A stretch of DNA of 64,000 nucleotides from an uncultured Victivallis sp. (GCA_944389815.1 CALXNS010000064.1:810-64809), one strand, 5' to 3'; numbered from the stretch's first letter, positions 1,454 to 18,796 are shown. Notes: generated by a model from the letters alone, not told the origin. Program-made: numbers and translations.

Positions 1454-1819
1454 TCATTGAACGCCGAGAAAACGCACCGGAAGAAGAATCGTGTGAAACA
1501 CCAGCTCAAACGGCGCAGCCGCCCCCTCGGTGATATGCCCCACTCCAGTCGACAGCATTCCGAACGGCAACCCCAGCGTCGCTTCACACACGCCCAGCGG
1601 CAGATAAAGAATTTTGAACGCCGATATCCCGATTTTCGCCAACCCCTGCGCTCCACCGGCCAACCCGGTCATCACGTAGGGATGCGTCGCCTCCGCCAAC
1701 CGGATTGCCGCCGGTGCCACCAATGCAATCGTCACCGGATCCATCGCGTGAATCCGCACCGGAGCAAAACAACACATCACGGCAACGCCGATTCCCAGAT
1801 ACCATTTTCGCATCTTCAT
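1454..1819 (-). CDS. Small exported hypothetical protein, last gene of the secretin/ABC operon
   Basis: 121-aa ORF starting 10 nt after the permease stop. N-terminal signal-like 'MKMRKWYLGIGVAVMCCFAPVRIHA', then a Gly/Ala-rich hydrophobic body. No family recognised. Confidence 0.45.
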   Translation of the reverse strand: MKMRKWYLGIGVAVMCCFAPVRIHAMDPVTIALVAPAAIRLAEATHPYVMTGLAGGAQGLAKIGISAFKILYLPLGVCEATLGLPFGMLSTGVGHITEGAAAPFELVFHTILLPVRFLGVQ

Positions 1820-1828
1820 GACCGCTTC

Positions 1829-3180
1829 TTATTCCGACCGCAGCACGGTAATCGGATTCTGTTGCGCCGCCTGATAGGCCGGATATGTACCGAATATCAC
1901 GCCGACCAGACTGGAAATCACCAGCGAAAGCCCGATACTCCACCACGAATACACCGTCGGCATTCCACTGTAATAGGTGATCGTCCGGGCGATGCCGACG
2001 CCGACCGCGATCCCGATCACCCCGCCCAGACTGGTCAGGAATACCGTTTCGATCAGAAACTGCAGCAGAATATCCGACTTCTGGGCGCCAAGCGCCCGTC
2101 GGGTTCCGATCTCCTTGCGCCGCTCGAATACGCTGGCAAGCATGATGTTCATGATGCCGATGCCGCCGACGATCAGGGAGATTCCGGCGATCGATCCCAT
2201 CACGATCGTAAAGATATTCTGGGTCTGCTCCTGCTGTTTGAGCAGTTCGAACGGCACCACCATCCCCCAGTCGGCAATCTCACCGTGAGTTTTCTCCAGA
2301 TAACCGGAAAGACGTTTGGCGGTGTTGTCGATATAAGCCGTATCATTGACCTTCACCAGAAAGAGATCGAACTCCACCCGGATGATTTTCGAACTGCGCC
2401 CTTCCCGATAAAAAGCATAATCCTTGTAAAACGCCCGTCCGGTCGTCTGCGGAATCAGAATCATATCATTCTGTCCGCCGATTTCGGGATACTGGCTTTC
2501 GTAGGGATTGTTGATGATTCCGATAATGCGGTACACCTTGTCATCCACCCGAAGCATTTCTCCGACCACATTGGTGTCGCCCAGTTCAAACATTTCTCGG
2601 CGGACGTTCTTGCCGATGACGCAGACCGGAACGTTGTTCTTGAAGTCCGCGGGCGTGAACCAGCGCCCCTTTTCCAGAAACGCGGGGGATTCATTCAGAA
2701 AATTGATGTCGCATCCGATCAGTTTCAGATTCGTGCGTGTCAGGCCCTTGAGGATTTTCTTGCGCACGTCGAAAAGCCCGATCACCTGATCGACGTTGTC
2801 CATACGCTCAATGTGACTGCGATCGCGTTGCGTGAGCCCGTAACGTTCGATCATGCTTGCCGAATTTGAACTTTCACTCTTGCCCGTCAACGACGGACGT
2901 TTCGAGAATACGATGATCCGATCGATTCCCATCGCCTCAATCTGAGCGAGCGCAGAACGTTTCGCCCCCTCTGAAATCGCCAGCATCGCAATCACGCTTC
3001 AGAGGGGGCGAAACGTTCTGCCCCCTCTGAAATCGCCAGCATCGCAATCACGCTTCCGACGCCGAAAATCACCCCGAGCGAGGTCAGAATCGACCGCACC
3101 TTGTGCATCAGGAGATTGTGCAGCGCCAATCCCAGCAAATCACGTGTGAGCATCATTTCGGCGTCCCCCGCACTTCCCAT
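1829..3180 (-). pseudogene. MacB/FtsX-type ABC transporter permease, split into 62-aa and 388-aa ORFs by a 56-bp duplication
   Basis: The upstream ORF ends '...[23 protein letters not shown]' and the downstream ORF restarts '(V)[22 protein letters not shown]'. The C-terminus has FtsX-type TM helices ('RRKEIGTRRALGA'). Removing one 56-bp unit restores one ORF of about 423 aa. The likely native start, ATG 3156, overlaps the ATPase stop (ATGA). Confidence 0.8.
2953..3056. repeat. Direct 37-bp repeat at 56-bp offset (2964-3000 and 3020-3056) with an embedded inverted copy (3001-3020 is the reverse complement of 2953-2972)
   Basis: Read directly. 'gccccctctgaaatcgccagcatcgcaatcacgcttc' occurs twice. 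'agagggggcgaaacgttctg' is the exact reverse complement of 'cagaacgtttcgccccctct'. Confidence 0.9.
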
Positions 3181-3884
3181 TCGAACGGCGTGTCGTCGAT
3201 CCGCCCGTCCCGCAGTCGAATGATTTTATCATAATGCGGACCGAGAGCCGGATTATGCGTGACCATGACGATCGTCACTCCCTGTTCGCGATTGAGTTCG
3301 TGAAAAAGCTCCATGATTTCATTGCTGGTCTTTTCGTCGAGATTTCCGGTCGGTTCGTCGGCGAGAATGAATGCCGGCTGATTGCTCAATGCGCGCGCAA
3401 TGGCGATACGCTGACACTCTCCACCGGAAAGCTGAGTCGGCCGGTGTCCCAGCCGGTGTCCCAATCCGACCCGTCGGGCGAGTTCCAGAGCCCGTTTCCG
3501 CCGGATGCGCCCCGGGATCCGGGCGTAAAGCATCGGCACTTCGATGTTCTGCTCGACGGAAAGATAGGCGAAAAGGTTGAAACTCTGAAAAATGAACCCG
3601 ATCTTGCGGTTTCGGATCGTCGCCTGCTCCACGTCGCTGAGCTGGCCGACTTCGACGTCTTCGAGAAAATATTCGCCCGCGGTCGGCACATCGAGCATCC
3701 CGAGAATGTTCAACAGCGTTGATTTTCCGCTGCCGCTGGTGCCGATGAAGCCGACGAATTCTCCCCGGCTGACCGTCGCATTGATCCCTTTGAGAACCGG
3801 AACGCGCAGATCGCCGGTAATATAAGTTTTACGTATGTCGATCAGACGGACAATGTCTCCGCCGTGCGCTTCCGTGGTCATCAC
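3153..3884 (-). CDS. ABC transporter ATP-binding protein (MacB/LolD-type ATPase)
   Basis: Walker A 'GTSGSGKST', signature 'LSGGECQR', Walker B 'FILADEPT', H-loop 'VTH'. The start (GTG 3884 or ATG 3881) overlaps the HlyD stop. Confidence 0.9.
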
Positions 3885-5404
3885 GATCCAGCCTTCACCG
3901 TTTGATACGGTCGATACAAATAAACCACGTCGCCCTCTTCAAGTCCGTCCTTGATCTGGACGAAATTGTCATTGGATTCGCCGATTACCACGTCGACCTC
4001 CTCCGGACCGGTCAGAGTCGAACGATAAACGAAAAACCGGTCTCCGTCCTCAAACACCGCCTCCACCGGGACGAACAATGCCCGCTGAATGATTTTCGTG
4101 ATGATGTTGAGTTTGACGCTCATGCCGTTGACCAGGCGGGGAGACTGTTCATCGAGCCGGACTTTTGACTTGTAGATCTTCGGTGACGAACCATCCCATA
4201 CCACCTGGTTGACCGGCAGAGTGTCGATGTGCATGATCTTTCCGGTAAACTTGGTCCCCGGCAATGAATCCGGAAAAATATTCACCACATCGCCGATATT
4301 CACCTTGGTGCGCGACTGTTCCGGCAGGTCGAATTCCACAATCAGATTGGACATGTCCGGTATCGTGATCAAAACGCGCCCCTTGCCGACATCCATGCCT
4401 TCCTGGAGTTCGAGTTTATCCCAGACGTTGTCCGCGTCGCCGTAGATGACCACGCCGTCAACCGGAGCGACCAGCTGCATTTGCTCCATATATTCCTGAT
4501 AGCGTTCCAGCTGTTCACGGGTCCGCCGGATGCGGCGTTTGAGGTTTTCGATCGAACGCTTCTGCTGGATTTCCTTGGAACCGGTCGAGATGCGAACCTT
4601 GCGCAGATTGAGCTTTGCCTGTTCGAATGCGTTGGTCAGGCGCGTCATTTTGCTCGGATGATCGAAGCGGCGGAAGACCTTGCGGTTGTCTTCGGCCTTC
4701 GAGAGCTCCTTTTCCGCCTTGTCGATCGCCGCCTGGGCGGTTTTCAGCTCCTGGCGTTTCTTTTCGGCCGGGTCCTCGTCATTTGTGGTGGAGGGGTCGG
4801 AATCACGCACCGTTTCGTAAGAATTGCGGGCGGTCTCAAGCGTTTCCTCGGCATTGGTGATGGCCAAATCGAGCGAATCGCGCTGGCTGATGCGCTCAAA
4901 CCGACGATATTTCCGGAGCGCGTCCTCGGCTTGAAGGAGAGTTTCCTCGGCCGACTGGAGATCTGCCGCGTTGGAACTGATCTGAATTTTTTCGGATTCG
5001 ATGGCGAGATCCAGCTCCTTTATGAGATTGTCGAGTTCGATTTCCTGATTCTCAATCTGAATCTTCAACGCATCGGTCTCGAATTTCGCCAGCACATCCC
5101 CGGCTTTCACCTTGCTGTTTTCGTCGACCACCCACAAAAGCTTGGTTCCATAATTGGCCTGAAGCGCAAGCTTGTATTTCTTGCTGGCATTCACATAACC
5201 GCCAAGCAGCAACCCGATCGGCAGATCGTCACGGCGCACCCGGAATGTCCGGTCCATGTCGCCGTCTCCGGCGGAAAGCTTGCGTGCGGCCTCCTGGGCG
5301 CCGGCTTTCCGCGCCGGGCGGACGACGCCGAAATAATATCCCGATCCGCCGCAGACGAGCAGCAGCAGCACGATCAGAATGATTTTCCTGCGTGTCAATT
5401 TCAT
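3881..5404 (-). CDS. HlyD/MacA-family periplasmic adaptor (membrane fusion protein) with a long coiled coil
   Basis: N-terminal TM anchor 'IILIVLLLLVCGG', an extended heptad-rich central region and a C-terminal beta-barrel-like segment. The ATG overlaps the secretin stop (ATGA). Confidence 0.85.
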   Translation of the reverse strand: MKLTRRKIILIVLLLLVCGGSGYYFGVVRPARKAGAQEAARKLSAGDGDMDRTFRVRRDDLPIGLLLGGYVNASKKYKLALQANYGTKLLWVVDENSKVKAGDVLAKFETDALKIQIENQEIELDNLIKELDLAIESEKIQISSNAADLQSAEETLLQAEDALRKYRRFERISQRDSLDLAITNAEETLETARNSYETVRDSDPSTTNDEDPAEKKRQELKTAQAAIDKAEKELSKAEDNRKVFRRFDHPSKMTRLTNAFEQAKLNLRKVRISTGSKEIQQKRSIENLKRRIRRTREQLERYQEYMEQMQLVAPVDGVVIYGDADNVWDKLELQEGMDVGKGRVLITIPDMSNLIVEFDLPEQSRTKVNIGDVVNIFPDSLPGTKFTGKIMHIDTLPVNQVVWDGSSPKIYKSKVRLDEQSPRLVNGMSVKLNIITKIIQRALFVPVEAVFEDGDRFFVYRSTLTGPEEVDVVIGESNDNFVQIKDGLEEGDVVYLYRPYQTVKAGS

Positions 5405-6916
5405 TTTACAACCTCACCCTCCTCCGGTGCGCCTGCGGCGGGCACCGGCGTAGACCCGTCATCGGAATTTTCCGGCATACCGGGAGGAACCGGATTGGGC
5501 AGTTCAAACGACTCATGGAGCAGTTCCTGACGGCGACGATATTCCTCGTGTCGGGCGCGCCGACTCTCCGGCGAAGCACTCTTGAGTTCATCGACGAAAT
5601 CCTCGACGGATGTTTCCCGTATCGGGAAGGAGTCCATGTTCTGCAGAGCGTCACCGATTCCCTCGCTGAGGAACGCATTGTCATCCGGGCTGAAATAAAC
5701 GTTATCCGGCACCTGTTCCGGGGGAATGATGTGAATCTTCAAAAAGAAGATCAGCTGCGTCACTTCCTTGGAATAATTTTTTCCGGTAAAAAGCTCACCG
5801 ATCCACGGCAGATCACTCAAAATCGGAACCCGCTGCTGCTGAAGCGTATCACGGCTGTTGTAAAGTCCACCCATCATCACGACCTGACCGCTCTGCATGC
5901 GCAGATGGGTTTCGACGCTGCGCACCGCGATCACCGGCACGGAGTAGCTCGATGCGCCGGTGCCGCTTCCGGTGGTGATGGTTTCGTAACGCGTCACATT
6001 CGACACCTGGGGATAAACACGCAACGTCACGTTATCATCGTTGATGATCTTCGGCTCGACCTCCAGCTCAACGCCGACGTTTTTGAATTTGGTGGTGATG
6101 CTGAGGTTGCTGCTCACGGTGTTGGCCTCCTGAATCGGGATGTCCTCACCGGTGACGATCCTGGAAATCTCATTGCGTGACAGCAGGATGTTCGGACTCG
6201 AAAGCACTTTGGCGTCCTGAGCGGTCAGCAGCCACTGAAATGCGATGTTGAGATTGTCTTTTCCCTGAATCACATTCCAGTTTCCGCTGGCGCCCTGAGT
6301 CGGCTGGACGGATTGTCCGGGCACCTCGGTCTGAGCGCCGACGCTGCCGCGGTTGTTGGAGAACATCATCGACAAATTCCGCTGCATCCCGTCGGAAAAG
6401 AGCACTTCGACCACCTTCGCTTCGATCAGCACCTGCGAAGAGGGCACGTCGGCGGCTTCGAGAATGGCGCGATACTGTTCGATTTCAGCGGACGGGGCGT
6501 TGATCATCAAGACGTTCTGTTCGGTGACCACATCGACGTAAACCGTCCCGAAAACGATGCTGTCGAGCGCCTTATACAACTCTTTCGCCGACGTGAACCG
6601 CGGCCGGAACACCAAAACCGAGCGTCCCTCTTCTCCGGCAATCACCCGGGAATACGCGGGGGCAACCTTTCGGGGGGGGGGTGGTCAGTATCGGACGTTC
6701 AGAATTCTCCTCGAAAAGCGCGGCGAGTTCGTCGACGACATTTCGCACGTTGCGCTTTCCCTGTTCGATATCGGCCTCGGTGCGAACGACCACCGGAACG
6801 TCTTTCTCAGCGGCATTCTCCTCTTCCGCGCCCGCCGGCAGGACGGGGAGCAGAAAAGCAGTCAGAAAAAGCTGCCATGAAACAGCCGGACGGATGAAGC
6901 GGAGCCGAATAAACAT
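5401..6916 (-). pseudogene. Secretin (GspD/PilQ/CpaC-family outer-membrane channel), frameshifted in a homopolymer
   Basis: C-terminal secretin-domain motifs 'VLSSPNILLSRNE', 'GEDIPI' and 'VPILSDLPWIGELF'. The signal peptide and N-terminal part ('MFIRLRFIRPAVSWQLFLTAFLLPVLPAGA', ATG at 6916) are in a different frame. The two frames join across the G10 run at 6672-6681 if one base is removed, giving '...ILTTPPPRKVAPAYSRVIAGEEGRS...'. Confidence 0.8.
6672..6681. repeat. G10 (C10 on the coding strand) homopolymer at the secretin frameshift site
   Basis: Counted directly in 'ctttcggggggggggtggtc'. Confidence 0.95.
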
Positions 6917-7228
6917 TGTCGAAATCCCTGTTTTCTTAACCTTACTCTCTATACACAAAACAAAACCAAACCAAATACAATCGAACAAACAGGGGGAAAC
7001 ACAAAACGACAAAAGAGAAGCGTTGATTGCCAGGCCGTCCCCCAACTGCCGGAATCCCGCTGAAAATGAATACAGAAAACGTTCTTTTTAATGTCGGTAA
7101 TATAACGGCAGCCAAATCATTTTCAAGACCATTCCGCGATTTTTTTTTAAATTTCCAGGTGTGACGAAGATTGGAACCGTTCTTGTTCAAAGGAGTTTGC
7201 CGGAATGAAAATTCCAACATGAAAATTA

Positions 7229-8926
7229 TTGACCGAAAATTACGGCAGTCTGTCGTTGAAAAACAAAAAATATTATGATATATTTGCCTATATTCTGCGG
7301 TATCAATTTCAATCCAGGTTCAAAAGCGGCATGAAGAATAAACTGTATGATTTTTACAAGGCGACGGAGTTGAAGATTGTAAATTTCGCCCACCGCTTCG
7401 GGAGTTTGCGACTTCGAACACAAAGTCTGTGGATTCTGCTTTTTCTATTATTCGTCATTTTGTGCAACCTCCAATTCATAGCCAAGGGGGGGGATGCGAT
7501 TCACAAGTGGTTTATGGTTCGGCTCTATCTGGAGCACGGCACCTTTTTCCCCATTCAACCGGATCACCATCTATTGCGCTGGGGACTCATGTGGCCGGTC
7601 ATCGGAGTGTGCAAATTGCTTGGCGCCTCCATTTACTGTTATTATTTATATCCCCTCTTCTGCTACTGTGCCGGCGGACTGTTGTTTTTCTGGCTTGGAC
7701 GGCAGATTCTCAGCCGCGAAACGGCTCCGTTTGCGGTATTGCTTTACGCGTTTTATCCCGTCATCATTCACGAAGGGACACAATTTCTGCCGCTGGTGCC
7801 GGCCACAATGTGGATTTTGATGACTCTTCTCTTCACTTTACGCTTTCTCGACGGCAAACAGAAGAATCCCTTATGGATGGTGGCGGCGGGAGCGGCACTG
7901 GTTTTCGCGTACGGCTGCAAGGAGACATCTTTTTTCTGGGCTCCGGGAATTTTTCTTTTTCTGGCATTTTCCCCTGCTGAAAAAGAGTGTTTGCACTGGA
8001 AAAAATTTCATGTCACCTGGGGAATGCTTCTCTTTTTTCTCACGTGCATCGGCGGAATGGGAATTGAAACTTTGATAATCAACCAGATTTACGACTGTAC
8101 TCTGGGGCGTTATGAACTCCTGCTCGGATCCCATCTGCTGGGGGATACCCAACAGGGAAATTACGCCACAATCTGGAGTTATCCCTTCAGTTTTCTCAGA
8201 CAATTCTCATGGCATGGCAAATATTATCAATTCCTGCCTCAGAACATTTCCATACTCATGGGATTGACCGGAGCTTTTTTTATTCTTAAATATCACCATG
8301 AAATCAGAAGGCGTTTTCTTGCCGTCGCCTTTCTCGGAGCGTACCTGTGTCACTGTTATGTCATTTTCAAGATTAATCCCATCAGTTATCCGGAACTGGT
8401 CATCCATCGTTATCTGATCGCCGTGCTCTGTGTCGGTTTCCTTCTGTTCTGCGCTTCGCTTCCCGACTTGAAAAAATGGTGTTGCGCAGGGCGTGCATGG
8501 CGCCGGATTCTCGTCGTTTCACTCGGCGGAATCTGGCTGATTACGGTGGCCATTTACAACATCAACGCCCGGCTGCAGGACGGCAATCTCTTTCAATTGG
8601 AGCAAATGCGCAGAACGATTCCGGCGGCCCTCAAAAACGGAGACGCCGTAGGAGTTGTTACAGAGCGTAAAAAAATCGCCCCCGACATAGATAATCGCGT
8701 CCTGCCCGATAAATGGGGGCTGCTCCATCTGCGCTGCTGGGGAGACACTCAAATGTTCTTTGAACTCCAGAAAAAACGCTGCACCTACACCCCATACGGC
8801 AAAAAGCAGGTCATCGTCTGGCTGAGTGCTCCCCGTGAAGGGAAACGCCGATTCGTTTTGGATGAATACTCCATCATCCGGGACCGGGATCTCCCTTCGC
8901 CTGACTTTGCGAACGGCTCTAAGTAA
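7229..8926 (+). CDS. Polytopic membrane glycosyltransferase, GT39/GT83 (ArnT/PMT)-like
   Basis: Many TM helices, with 'LLYAFYPVIIHEGTQF' and 'FAYGCKETSFFW' segments typical of ArnT/PMT-like proteins and a C-terminal soluble tail. The ORF starts at TTG 7229; the first ATG (7331, 'MKNKLYDF') is an alternative start. Visibly lower GC than its neighbours. Confidence 0.6.
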   Translation: MTENYGSLSLKNKKYYDIFAYILRYQFQSRFKSGMKNKLYDFYKATELKIVNFAHRFGSLRLRTQSLWILLFLLFVILCNLQFIAKGGDAIHKWFMVRLYLEHGTFFPIQPDHHLLRWGLMWPVIGVCKLLGASIYCYYLYPLFCYCAGGLLFFWLGRQILSRETAPFAVLLYAFYPVIIHEGTQFLPLVPATMWILMTLLFTLRFLDGKQKNPLWMVAAGAALVFAYGCKETSFFWAPGIFLFLAFSPAEKECLHWKKFHVTWGMLLFFLTCIGGMGIETLIINQIYDCTLGRYELLLGSHLLGDTQQGNYATIWSYPFSFLRQFSWHGKYYQFLPQNISILMGLTGAFFILKYHHEIRRRFLAVAFLGAYLCHCYVIFKINPISYPELVIHRYLIAVLCVGFLLFCASLPDLKKWCCAGRAWRRILVVSLGGIWLITVAIYNINARLQDGNLFQLEQMRRTIPAALKNGDAVGVVTERKKIAPDIDNRVLPDKWGLLHLRCWGDTQMFFELQKKRCTYTPYGKKQVIVWLSAPREGKRRFVLDEYSIIRDRDLPSPDFANGSK

Positions 8927-9285
8927 AAAATCTCATTTGCGGCAATTCGGAACTGACTGGTCTGGAGTATCATACCTCCGCCCCGAACCGGTCGTTTTAT
9001 TCCTGCCCGGATCAATAACGCATTGAGAATTCATCTGTATTCAAATCTGGTGTTCCCGCTCCTTTCATCAATTCCACGTCCGGCCTGCGCCTGCAGATGT
9101 CGTCCTCTCCGCATCAACCGCGAATTTCCGGGAATAATAGAACAAAATCTTCCGCATTTTCAATGAAAACAACCTCAAAAATCAGAAACATTGCAAAAAA
9201 GCAATCTTTTTTTCAAAAGGGACTGGACAACTGCGCCGAATCGATTATCTTAAATATAAAGGACACCGATTGCAACCCGAATTGA

Positions 9286-10905
9286 ATGAAGATGAACATC
9301 GACAGCAGCAAACTTGATCCGGTCACCCGGAAATTTCTCGAAAGCCATGAAAATGAATGCGCGGCGGTCGTCACCACGCCGGCGCAGCGCTGTTATTATC
9401 TGCTGCTGTGCATCGGGTTGCTGTTTTTATTGAAATACCGCTGGGATTATTTTGTTTTTCTCACTGCGGCATATTTCATGTTCTGGTACGGTGCGGCGGC
9501 GCTCTTCCGGGGGGGGGCGGCGGTGCTGTCGTTCTTCGGCTGCGGCGAGACGCGCATCTCCTCGCAGGAAACCGCCGGCAATGACGCTGAACTTCCGATC
9601 TACACCATTCTTCTGCCGCTCTATCACGAAGCGAATATCGCACCGAAGATCGTCCGCAACATCGGCAGACTCGATTATCCGCCGGAGAAACTCGATGTCA
9701 AGCTCCTGCTCGAAAGCGACGACGCGGAGACGCGCCAGGCTCTGGAACACGCCGGCCTGCCGTCCTTTTGCGACGTGATCGTCATTCCGGATGCGCCGCC
9801 CAAAACCAAGCCGCGCGCCTGCAATTTCGGACTCGAACGCGCCCGCGGCGAATTCTGCGTGATCTACGACGCCGAAGACGCTCCCGAACCGGATCAGCTC
9901 CGCAAAGCGGTCGCAGTCTTCCGCCGCGACCCGGAACGAAAAATTCTCTGCGCCCAGGCAAAACTCAATTATTACAACGCGCGCCAGAACCTCCTGACAC
10001 GCCTCTTCACCGTGGAATATTCCACCTACTTCGATTTGACGCTGAGCGGTTATCAGCTTTTCCGGCTGCCGCTGCCGCTCGGGGGCACCAGCAACCATTT
10101 CCGCACCGAACTTCTCCGTCAGATCGGTCCCTGGGATCCCTTCAACGTCACCGAAGACTGCGACCTCGGATTGCGGATTTATGAAAAGGGGTATCGCACG
10201 ACGCTCTTTAATTCCACCACCTTCGAGGAGGCGAACTGCGAACTGTGGAACTGGATGCGGCAACGTTCGCGCTGGGTCAAAGGTTTCATTCAGACCCACC
10301 TGGTTCATTACCGCAATCCCTTCCGGACGGTTGAAAAACTCGGCTGGTACGGCACGCTCGGCGGTTTTCTCGCCGTCGGCGGCAGCGCGCTGATGATGTT
10401 GACCAACATTGTGTTCTGGGGGTTGATCCTGCTTTACTTCGGATTGCTCATTCACGGCTTCTCCCACGGAGTCGGCTTCTGGGAACAGATTCACGGACCG
10501 CACCTCGACGGAGGAATCTATCAGGGGATTGCCGTCGGACCGTTTCATCTGCGTGCATGGCCGTTGATTTTCACCGGCCCGGGGGAAGATCCGTTTCTCT
10601 CCGTCTTTTCGGAGCTGTTTTTCGCGGGATCGATGATTCTCTTTCTGGCGAACTTTCTTTTTATCGGCATCGGCATTGCGGCGTGCATCAAGCGACGCAT
10701 GTTCGATCTGATTCCGGCGGCGCTGCTGATGCCGTTTTACTGGCTGCTGATTTCACTGGCGGCCTGGAAAGGCTTCTGCCAGATCTTCACCAGACCATTC
10801 TACTGGGAAAAAACCAAACACGGTTTGACCAACAATACCGACACCGACGTCGAGCATGCAACAGGGGGGACCATAACATGCGACAAACAAACCATTTCAC
10901 TTTAA
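9286..10905 (+). CDS. Processive family-2 glycosyltransferase (membrane-embedded polysaccharide synthase type)
   Basis: D,D,D,QxxRW signature: 'ESDD', 'YDAEDAP', 'VTEDCDLG' (TED) and 'RQRSRW'. N- and C-terminal TM helices flank the catalytic domain. Confidence 0.85.
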
Positions 10906-11582
10906 TCGAGCTTCTGGTGGTAATCGCGATCATCGCGATTCTTGCGGGCATGCTGCTTCCCGCGCTCAACCGCGCGAGGGAAAAGGCACAGGACACAACC
11001 TGCCTCAACCAGCTCAAACAACACGGTCTGGCGCTCGACATGTACCGCAACGATTATCGCGACCGGATGCCGCCGTGGCTTTCGACCCTCTATCCGAACT
11101 ACACAACCTCCGCACAACTCTACCATTGTCCGAAGGATCAGAATCCGCCGGACACCGCTCCGGAGGACTGGAAATCGCGCGGCTTGAACGACGACTCCTA
11201 CGCGGCCAGTTACGACCGGCAGGGCAACGTCGGAATCCGCGGAAACAATCCGAATACGGATGTGACGGCCAATCCCACTACGGCGGTCAACAAGATCAGT
11301 TATTTCTATGAATTCGCGGAGGCGCAATGCCAGTTCGGCACCGCGGAGGAACAGGCGACCATGAGCTGGAACGAGAAAAAAGCCAAAGATATGCGCGGCG
11401 GCACCTGTGACGTGGAAGGGCCGTTCAAGGATGTGCCGTACCGCAGTATCATGACGCTTTTTCCGACCGTACGCTGTTCGTGGCACATCAGCGCCGGAAC
11501 AGACAAACCCGTGCAGAACGTCTCTTATGCGGGCAACATTTTCTACAGCATGAGCATGTGGGAACGCGGTGCCTGGAAATAA
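10878..11582 (+). CDS. Prepilin-type N-terminal cleavage/methylation domain protein (pseudopilin-like paralog 1)
   Basis: '[37 protein letters not shown]'. ATG at 10878 lies inside the longer 10557 ORF, whose upstream part overlaps the GT2 gene in another frame. Confidence 0.85.
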
Positions 11583-16002: not shown

Positions 16003-16815
16003 ATGACGCACGCAGAAACAATCACCCGGCCCGTTTTCCGTTCCATTTCCGCTTCCGCAATCAAACCATTGCACTTCACGCTGATCGAACTCCTGATCGT
16101 AATTACGATCATCGCCATTCTTGCTTCAATGCTGCTTCCGGCGCTCAATCAGGCCAGGGAACGGGCACACGCCGCCGGCTGCATGAACAATCTGCGCCAG
16201 CTCGGAATGGCGGTCAACGCCTATCGTTCCGACAACGATGATTTCTTCTCCAACGCATGGGGCGGTTTCGAAAAACGCAATTATGAGAATGCGCCCCGTC
16301 ATCTCTCCGGTTATCTCGGCGGTCCGACCAGGGCGCAGATTGACGGCAGTGCCGAATTTCAGAACGACGATCTGATTCCGCAGCCCTTCTTCTGTCCCTC
16401 CGTCAAACCGGATCCGGCCTATTACCGATCGAACTACACCTACGCATTCGCATACAGTTATTACTCTGTGAGCAATGCGATGCGCCTCTCGCAGACGAAG
16501 TTCAACGACACGCACAATCAGCCGCAGCCGCGCAGCCGGGCGATCATCGCGGCGGACTCCCATTGGGCGATTGCCGACGGGGCATATCACGGCAACGGAC
16601 TGCGTCCGGCCGCGCAAACCTGGGCGGGCGCGATCTCCGTGCGTCACGGCAACCGCGGTAATCTGCTGCTGGTCGACGGATCGGTCCCGGGGGTGAATGC
16701 CGCCGAGTTGCGGGAATATTATATTCTCAACCGCCACAACGACGCTTCGCCGTTCCCGATTGCCCATCAGGTCAGCGAGTGCTATGACGCAAACGGCGCG
16801 TTGATGGCGCTTTAA
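16003..16815 (+). CDS. Prepilin-type N-terminal cleavage/methylation protein with an H-X9-DG C-terminal motif (pseudopilin-like paralog 2)
   Basis: '[32 protein letters not shown]' and '[14 protein letters not shown]' (H-X9-DG). Starts 3 nt after the heparinase-like stop. Confidence 0.9.
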
Positions 16816-18129: not shown

Positions 18130-18145
18130 CAGGAAGGAGAGGGAA

Positions 18146-18796
18146 ATGAAGCGTTTATTCACACTGATCGAATTGCTCGTCGTTATTGCGATCATCGCGA
18201 TTCTCGCGTCAATGCTGCTTCCGGCGCTCAATCAGGCCCGGGAACGGGCCAAAGGGGTCGCCTGCAAATCGAACCTCAAGCAGATCGGCACCCAAATTCA
18301 GATGTATGCCGACGACTTCAAGGATAACCTTCCGGAAACCGGATCGTCGACCTACTCCTGGGAGCAGCGGCTGCTCGATTTGAATTACATTCCCTACAGC
18401 GGTCAGGGAGTCAAGCTGGTTCTCTGTCCCGGCGACGTCATTAAACGCACCTCGACCGAACACGCCCCGAAGAGTTACCGCTGCAACGGCTATCTCTGGA
18501 CCAATGCGGACGCAAGCTGCGTCAACGGCGCCGTCACCCGGGTGCGCAATCAGCCCAGCCAGCTTGTCTCGCTGGTCTGCCAGCCGCATGAGGTGATGAC
18601 CTGTTACAGCGGCAGCGCGGCATTTCAATACGGCTTTGCAATTCCGACGTCAAGCAGTGTCGAACAATGGACGCACGGGGATTTCGGCACGTTCCTTTTC
18701 CTTGGCGGCAACGTAGGCAATATCATGTTTCGGACGACGAGCGACACCACGCTCTTCAATCGCCACTGGCGCGCCAACAAGGCGGAAAACGAATAA
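18146..18796 (+). CDS. Prepilin-type N-terminal cleavage/methylation protein (pseudopilin-like paralog 3; degenerate H-X9-GG)
   Basis: '[35 protein letters not shown]' after RBS 'aggaaggaga'. The C-terminus '[12 protein letters not shown]' resembles H-X9-DG with D changed to G. Confidence 0.9.

Follow-up and report, generated by a model that had tools for sequence, protein, structure and literature searches.

We describe here a four-gene module on a 64-kb stretch of DNA from an uncultured Victivallis sp. (GCA_944389815.1 CALXNS010000064.1:810-64809; the whole stretch is referred to as the window, and coordinates are counted from its first letter), in which a short secretin is encoded together with a MacAB-type ATP-binding cassette (ABC) pump. 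The four core genes probably form one envelope-spanning tripartite exporter, in which the secretin, which has no N0 domain, would act as the outer-membrane duct. They are located on the minus strand between 1454 and 6916, in the order secretin (6916..5401), MacA-like adaptor (5404..3881), ABC ATPase (3884..3153) and MacB-type permease (3156..1829), and are followed by a small open reading frame (ORF). This arrangement had been proposed in the original prediction and is confirmed by ORF analysis and by Pfam and NCBIfam profiles. After repair of two lesions that are treated further below, the profile hidden Markov models for Secretin, Secretin_N, HlyD_D23, HlyD_3, MacB_PCD and FtsX all match the encoded proteins. 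The start and stop codons overlap exactly where they were said to (ATGA at 5401-5404, TGATG at 3879-3883 and ATGA at 3153-3156). The view that the genes are co-translated is too strong as a general statement, because the overlaps occur only in this lineage, while the same genes are spaced 20-450 nt apart in relatives.

The pairing of secretin and pump is kept far beyond this genome. In a secretin-seeded scan with one genome per species, partner genes were sought by tblastn at 78 related loci (given L-numbers where they have to be told apart). Secretin, adaptor, ATPase and permease follow each other on the same strand in 52 of the 52 loci that hold secretin, adaptor and permease; at L064 the ATPase match was not detected by tblastn. 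Secretin identity among the 52 linked loci ranges from 74% down to 30%, and every locus with at least 30% identity and enough flank has the partners downstream. The adjacency that the original prediction had noticed is thus present, in the same order, in every informative related locus. None of the flanking families other than the four core genes is conserved across the 52 loci, and neither phage nor tad genes were linked to the operon among the flanks examined.

A different reading of the locus is that it encodes two separate, co-regulated machines. The secretin would then serve an apparatus similar to a type II secretion system (T2SS) or type IV pilus (T4P) that involves DUF1559 proteins, and the pump would use a TolC duct encoded elsewhere, or none. 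In well-studied bacteria the gene for TolC often lies apart from those of its pumps, and three DUF1559 or N_methyl genes are indeed found in the window. DUF1559 is also the commonest flanking family at related loci (15 of 52). The original prediction had mentioned many pseudopilin-like proteins nearby; such genes exist, but there are only three of the DUF1559 type, at 10.9, 16.1 and 18.2 kb. These genomes hold DUF1559 genes in multiple copies, and some would be expected to flank the loci by chance. The secretin, moreover, has no assembly genes linked to it. Homologues of GspE and GspF were searched for in the window and none was found, in agreement with the earlier statement that T2SS assembly genes are missing there. 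Within 10 kb of the secretin, GspE or GspF occurs in 0 of 64 loci of the family and likewise not in the window, against 11 of 16 control loci with more distant secretins (<30% identity). Conversely, an adaptor or MacB-type permease was found at none of these 16 distant-secretin loci. The sole unit conserved across several phyla is the set of four genes. Together with the duct genes of sister pumps and the domain structure of the secretin, both described in the following, these data make two separate machines quite unlikely, and the idea that the secretin serves the pseudopilin-like proteins is left without support, while a meaningful pairing of secretin and pump is in line with the conserved linkage.

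A second scan, seeded with the adaptor, covered 80 loci on metagenome contigs, 47 of which were informative in that they contain a complete adaptor and at least 1.3 kb of upstream sequence. The secretin is located 22-452 nt upstream of the adaptor in 40 of these 47 loci, and the four-gene order holds down to ~30% secretin and 26% adaptor identity. The seven loci without a secretin carry the most distant adaptors (24-27% identity). In six of these seven, and in addition at L151 and L142, a gene of the Pfam OEP (TolC) family lies beside the pump; in most cases it occupies the slot immediately upstream of the adaptor gene, where the secretin sits in the window. No locus was found that holds both a secretin and an OEP gene. 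The OEP profile detects no such gene in the window or at any secretin-linked locus (1.95 Mb), and the OEP genes beside sister pumps, which are readily detected, serve as a positive control for this search. A single E. coli TolC query is only partly sensitive, with four of seven OEP genes detected, and was replaced by the profile. By phmmer with E. coli TolC and by the OEP profile alike, the window contains no TolC-like gene, as had been claimed. Because an OEP gene adjoins the next-most-distant pumps, mostly in the same slot, the secretin appears to replace a TolC-type duct. That the two pore genes never occur at one locus likewise speaks against two independent machines and for a meaningful pairing. 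In a neighbour-joining tree of 89 permeases one split sets all five OEP-linked pumps and two of unknown context apart from all 79 secretin-linked ones. The tree fits a scenario in which a secretin took over from the TolC-type duct just once and was co-inherited for long thereafter; this is the simplest reading. As a side observation, an ORF of ~316-322 aa immediately precedes the OEP gene in the sister operons L153, L155 and L157; the copy in L153 (4115-5065) is a multihaem cytochrome c, a context unlike that of the secretin-linked pumps.

The secretin of the window, 504 aa long after repair, belongs to the superfamily TCDB 1.B.22 and matches Pfam Secretin (PF00263) at residues 231-397 with 133.5 bits (cut-off 27.5) and Secretin_N at residues 101-161 with 38.7 bits (cut-off 28.2). 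It comprises a signal-peptide-like N-terminus, a helix (47-67), an N3-type domain (88-155), the secretin core (161-397) and C-terminal helices (410-469). An AlphaFold2 (AF2) model of the monomer, with a mean predicted local distance difference test (pLDDT) score of only 68, has a beta-alpha-beta-beta-alpha unit at 88-155. Top Foldseek matches of this model are GspD, PilQ, InvG and pIV (E 1e-17 to 1e-12), and against the PDB 40 secretin chains are recovered at E <= 1e-10, with non-secretin chains only above 1e-2. Domains N0, N1 and N2 were not found in the protein, which has one N3-type domain alone. In canonical T2SS and T4P secretins, N0 binds the inner-membrane platform. The N-terminal helix, in turn, is family-specific and conserved, with near-invariant T46, G53, N56, V57, V60, L64 and F68. 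Public annotations name the secretin 'GspD' or 'hypothetical', and the former label would favour a role in a T2SS-like machine. Its scores lie far below the cut-offs of the respective models, with 158.4 bits for the GspD equivalog (TIGR02517, cut-off 351.35; model positions 248-592 of 600 matched) and 130.4 bits for PilQ (TIGR02515, cut-off 284.35), and it also falls below the cut-offs for MshL and SctC. Both these scores and the lack of N0-N2 argue against a secretin that works for a separate T2SS or T4P apparatus.

The adaptor (507 aa; HlyD_D23 and HlyD_3) has MacA as its best solved relative, both in a PDB profile search (E 1e-13) and in a fold search, where Foldseek places MacA from MacAB-TolC on top (9qgy_G, 4.6e-22; 5nik_D, 7.6e-21). 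An N-terminal transmembrane (TM) anchor (8-26) is followed by a very long alpha-hairpin and then by beta-barrel and membrane-proximal domains. In an AF2 model of the adaptor with a mean pLDDT of 85, the hairpin helices comprise residues 111-201 and 212-308 (91 and 97 residues). The hairpin tip is the least conserved region of the adaptor, with a column identity of 0.34-0.45 compared to 0.6-0.75 elsewhere. The motif R-x3-L-x6-S (RLS), which TolC-docking adaptors keep at the tip, was not found at the tip of this adaptor. It may be inferred that the variable, RLS-less tip and the conserved secretin helix in place of N0 fit a docking mode different from that with TolC. A conserved 'belt' on the hairpin (KYRRFER 165-171 and RFDHPSK 246-252) was considered as a secretin-specific contact site. 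Such specificity is not supported, because an OEP-linked relative has the proline and its surrounding pattern as well, and in the alignment the belt falls on the RLS region of MacA. The adaptor of the Kiritimatiellota branch (L138, 6917-8392) starts with a lipobox, LLTGC, and has no TM anchor like that of the window, and therefore the attachment of the adaptor to the inner membrane differs between branches.

The ATPase is a separate polypeptide of 243 aa (ABC_tran, 107.7 bits). Its top NCBIfam matches are the MacB nucleotide-binding domain (NBD) region with 231 bits and LolD with 229.8 bits (cut-off 307.75), both below the equivalog cut-offs. Walker A (at 48), signature (at 152) and Walker B (at 172) are intact, and judged by these motifs the protein is predicted to be a catalytically competent member of the MacB/LolD subfamily. 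The permease, 423 aa after repair, matches MacB_PCD with 104.3 bits and FtsX with 86.1 bits, and an intact orthologue at L001 has the same length of 423 aa and is 91% identical. Hydropathy analysis, with a 56-bp insertion removed, places TM segments at 23-41, 296-314, ~344-371 and 387-405, and a periplasmic domain of ~254 aa between the first and the second, which is the topology of a type VII ABC transporter. A six-helix ABC_membrane domain fused to the NBD, as in type I secretion, was not found: the permease is of the FtsX/MacB type, the NBD is separate, and on the adaptor side the type_I_hlyD model scores 28.8 bits with a cut-off of 208.65. The module does not correspond to LolCDE either, as the lolCE model yields 27 bits (cut-off 362.45), the LolD score stays below its cut-off, and an adaptor gene is always present.

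The relationship to type VII systems raises the possibility that the ABC module does not transport at all. Instead, it might act as a mechanical actuator that moves the coiled-coil adaptor and thereby gates, opens or assembles the secretin, comparable to FtsEX-EnvC; the substrate would then reach the pore from the periplasm along a different route, or would pass inward (large glycans, DNA). The periplasmic gate of secretins needs to be opened, the hairpin tip varies where docking tips do not, and the strict linkage of the four genes fits this scheme equally well. According to two reports, the type VII ABC family includes the non-transporting mechanotransducers FtsEX-EnvC and LolCDE (PMC12646458; PMC5985334). 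However, the adaptor has the full domain set of MacA and is nearest to MacA in sequence as well as in fold, and the OEP-partnered sister pumps look like ordinary exporters. For inward transport through a secretin that has no pilus we know of no precedent. An actuator of this kind thus appears unlikely to us.

For the exporter that we favour, the following mode of action can be envisaged. The inner membrane would harbour a MacB-type (type VII) ABC transporter, made of the permease with its large periplasmic domain and the separate ATPase. The membrane-anchored MacA-like adaptor would oligomerise and build a periplasmic tube from alpha-hairpins of ~95 residues per arm. The short secretin, with one N3-type domain and the family-specific N-terminal helix, would be the outer-membrane duct and take the place of a TolC-family protein. 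ATP hydrolysis would drive movements of the MacB periplasmic domain (mechanotransmission), by analogy with MacAB-TolC, and these movements would force the substrate, which has by then reached either the periplasm or the inner membrane's outer leaflet, through the adaptor tube and out via the secretin. MacAB-TolC acts on substrates that are already outside the cytoplasm (PMC5985334). In this scheme the physical contact of adaptor and secretin, the direction of transport and the cargo are what we infer. Our best guess for the cargo would be a bulky glycoconjugate or polysaccharide, or else a folded periplasmic protein. In a wider and more tentative view, which we consider doubtful, the operon might represent an unnamed two-step secretion system of bacteria of the Planctomycetes-Verrucomicrobia-Chlamydiae (PVC) group. 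It would consist of a MacB-type 'bellows' motor, a long-hairpin tube and a minimal secretin, would move large periplasmic cargo (folded protein, exopolysaccharide or glycolipid) with neither pseudopilus nor TolC, and may be the main exit for large cargo in Lentisphaerota and Kiritimatiellota.

Several observations weigh against an exporter built in this way. The RLS motif of MacA aligns to K-x3-L-x6-A at residues 252-263 of the adaptor, which is mid-helix. Long hairpins also occur outside the secretin-linked pumps, and hairpin length had to be rejected as a signature of secretin docking, since the adaptor of the OEP-linked locus L148 is just as long. The lumen of a hexameric MacA-type tube is narrow, ~30 Angstrom, which leaves the need for a wide secretin unexplained. 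It is also questionable whether a six-membered adaptor and a 12- to 15-membered secretin match in symmetry. A cargo gene did not emerge, as clustering of all flanking ORFs from the 52 loci revealed nothing conserved beyond the four genes. The searches covered the loci, and a TolC-family partner or a canonical T2SS may be encoded elsewhere in these genomes. Finally, the copy in the window carries two frame-breaking lesions and therefore is either switched off or mis-assembled.

The first of these lesions is a run of ten C at 6672-6681 (minus strand) that shifts the secretin frame; removal of one C restores the 504-aa protein. A relative that is 93% identical (L083) has no homopolymer at this site and is one base shorter. 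The second is an insertion of 56 bp at ~2998-3053 (minus strand) in the permease gene, composed of a direct duplication of 34 nt that is joined to an inverted copy of 22 nt, an unusual structure. Its length is not a multiple of three and it brings in a TGA, and its removal yields an open reading frame. The genes are intact in all relatives, at L001 for instance with lengths of 483, 510, 244, 423 and 119 aa. If both lesions are real, no functional system would be made in this genome, by decay or by switching off. We take this as a serious possibility, although it stays below an even chance. Two independent frame-breaking lesions that are absent from every relative speak for it. So does the distribution of G/C runs of at least eight, as four of the five such runs in the window fall within 6672-9517, in the secretin, PMT_2 and GT2 (glycosyltransferase family 2) genes, which is compatible with on/off switching by slipped-strand events. 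Apart from the lesions, however, neither frame is interrupted, and identity to intact orthologues is 74-91%, which argues against old decay. Homopolymer-length errors and palindromic duplications are, furthermore, typical artefacts of assembly or sequencing. The insertion (region 2940-3056) could be either a template-switch mutation or a palindromic assembly artefact. Among the clustered tracts are the C10 of the secretin gene (6672-6681, coding strand), a G8 in PMT_2 (7486-7493) and a G9 in the GT2 gene (9509-9517). Related loci contain 11 runs of this kind per 986 kb, about one per 90 kb, and the clustered tracts may be sites of slipped-strand phase variation in envelope and glycan genes.

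The genes around the operon give some hints on its function. The small ORF (1819..1454, minus strand, 121 aa) has no Pfam or NCBIfam match. Its product starts like a signal peptide and continues as a hydrophobic body rich in Gly and Ala. The ORF is an accessory gene, with homologues only in the closest clade (L001, L003, L004, L006, L008, L017). It follows the permease gene, its length is 119-127 aa, and the motif IDPVT(L/I)A(L/I)(L/V)APAA(M/I)R(M/L)AEA is conserved between the window, L001, L004, L006, L008 and L017. Upstream of the secretin start, at a distance of ~180 nt, a consensus scan found a weak promoter-like site, TTGAAA-16-TATATT (7099..7126, minus strand, 10/12 matches). On the plus strand, a PMT_2 (ArnT/GT39-like) membrane glycosyltransferase (7229..8926, 44.2 bits) lies between the operon and a membrane GT2 glycosyltransferase (9286..10905, Glyco_trans_2_3 88.9 bits, weak similarity to CelA and PgaC). 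The PMT_2 gene is found only in this window and has no homologue at the other loci. The GT2 protein resembles processive synthases; its gene is divergent and directly upstream of the secretin in 11 loci of the Victivallis clade, and 2.4 kb away in the window. A galE gene, for UDP-glucose 4-epimerase (394 bits, cut-off 262), immediately precedes the secretin gene in all five Kiritimatiellota loci (L136-L139 and L164), and in four Lentisphaerae loci (L031, L046, L097 and L098) it comes right after the permease gene. With galE and GT2 genes as neighbours, the cargo may be a glycan or glycolipid, although the hint is weak. The DUF1559 or N_methyl pseudopilin-like genes of the window are located at 10896-11582, 16003-16815 and 18134-18796. 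They adjoin genes for AraC- and LacI-type regulators and a putative glycan-degrading set, composed of an ADP-ribosylglycohydrolase, a heparinase II/III-like protein and a 1236-aa protein that has no Pfam match, and their surroundings look like sugar-utilisation loci rather than pilus operons.

The module, which is conserved among PVC-group bacteria of gut and sea, is found in Lentisphaerota, Kiritimatiellota, one metagenome-assembled genome (MAG) of Phycisphaerae and one of Firestonebacteria, with the secretin-seeded loci mostly from Lentisphaeria or Victivallales. The deepest secretin-linked branch (L136-L139) is formed by Kiritimatiellota and includes the cultured Tichowtungia aerotolerans (CP047593.1) and Pontiellaceae B1224. 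There is a second, divergent four-gene subfamily with a secretin of ~30-34% identity (L061, L062, L063, L110, L113-L119 and L135), located in genomes named Victivallis (L061-L063) and on large contigs from the human gut; L062 has a lower G+C content, and no ORFs were found in the intergenic gaps of its operon. As judged from sequence, this second subfamily suggests paralogous systems of different specificity.

Secretins are known as outer-membrane pores of the T2SS, the type III secretion system, type IV and Tad pili and filamentous phages, while tripartite pumps of the ABC, resistance-nodulation-division and major facilitator superfamily classes use TolC-family ducts. A conserved operon of a secretin, a membrane fusion protein (MFP) and an ABC pump departs from both rules. 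If the coupling is physical, the outer-membrane part of tripartite pumps would be exchangeable between unrelated pore families, and the module would provide a minimal, pilus-free system in which the opening of the secretin gate can be studied. It would then also be a candidate route for glycan or protein export in abundant but poorly studied polysaccharide degraders of gut, rumen and sea. The four-gene module is directly testable, with Tichowtungia aerotolerans, Victivallis vadensis, Pontiellaceae B1224 and Lentisphaerota zth2 as cultured hosts.

The closest known system is MacAB-TolC of E. coli (PDB 5nik, 9qgy). Common to both are a permease of four TM segments with MacB_PCD and FtsX domains, a MacB/LolD-type ATPase, a MacA-like adaptor and an adaptor gene upstream of the transporter in the operon. 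Unlike in MacAB-TolC, the outer-membrane gene of the operon described here encodes a secretin and not an OEP/TolC protein, the ATPase is a polypeptide separate from the permease, in contrast to E. coli MacB, and the adaptor is ~135 residues longer, with a hairpin about twice that of E. coli MacA and a variable tip devoid of the RLS motif. An adaptor combined with a separate ATPase and an FtsX-type permease is also found in DevBCA-HgdD, the cyanobacterial exporter of heterocyst glycolipids, and in PvdRT-OpmQ, AatPABCD and YknXYZ, and the long-hairpin adaptor is another shared feature. These pumps export bulky substrates other than drugs, such as a glycolipid, a siderophore or a small protein. 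The module is distinct from DevBCA in its scores, with 187 bits for DevA (cut-off 296) and 19 bits for DevC (cut-off 290). To our knowledge, Gram-negative pumps of the DevBCA/PvdRT type use TolC-family ducts, and use of a secretin is known for none of them. On the secretin side, GspD of the T2SS is the best profile and fold match. It shares the core and N3 and is presumably similar in being a gated, multimeric outer-membrane pore for periplasmic substrates. The secretin described here differs from GspD by the missing N0, N1 and N2, by the lack of linkage to GspE/F/G in 64 loci, and by its conserved partners, an MFP adaptor and an ABC pump. The phage protein pIV and RcpA of the Tad system are, like it, small secretins with few periplasmic domains and a secretin core. 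However, pIV has an N0 and works with phage pI/pXI, and RcpA has TadD and the Tad pilus ATPase as its partners. A search of the full-text literature, with subscription-only sources outside its scope, did not reveal any report in which a secretin is coupled to an MFP/ABC pump. All parts of the module belong to known families, which points to a tripartite ABC pump with a swapped outer-membrane component, and thereby to an undescribed route across the outer membrane. Should both the coupling and a large cargo be confirmed, the module would come close to a new type of secretion system.

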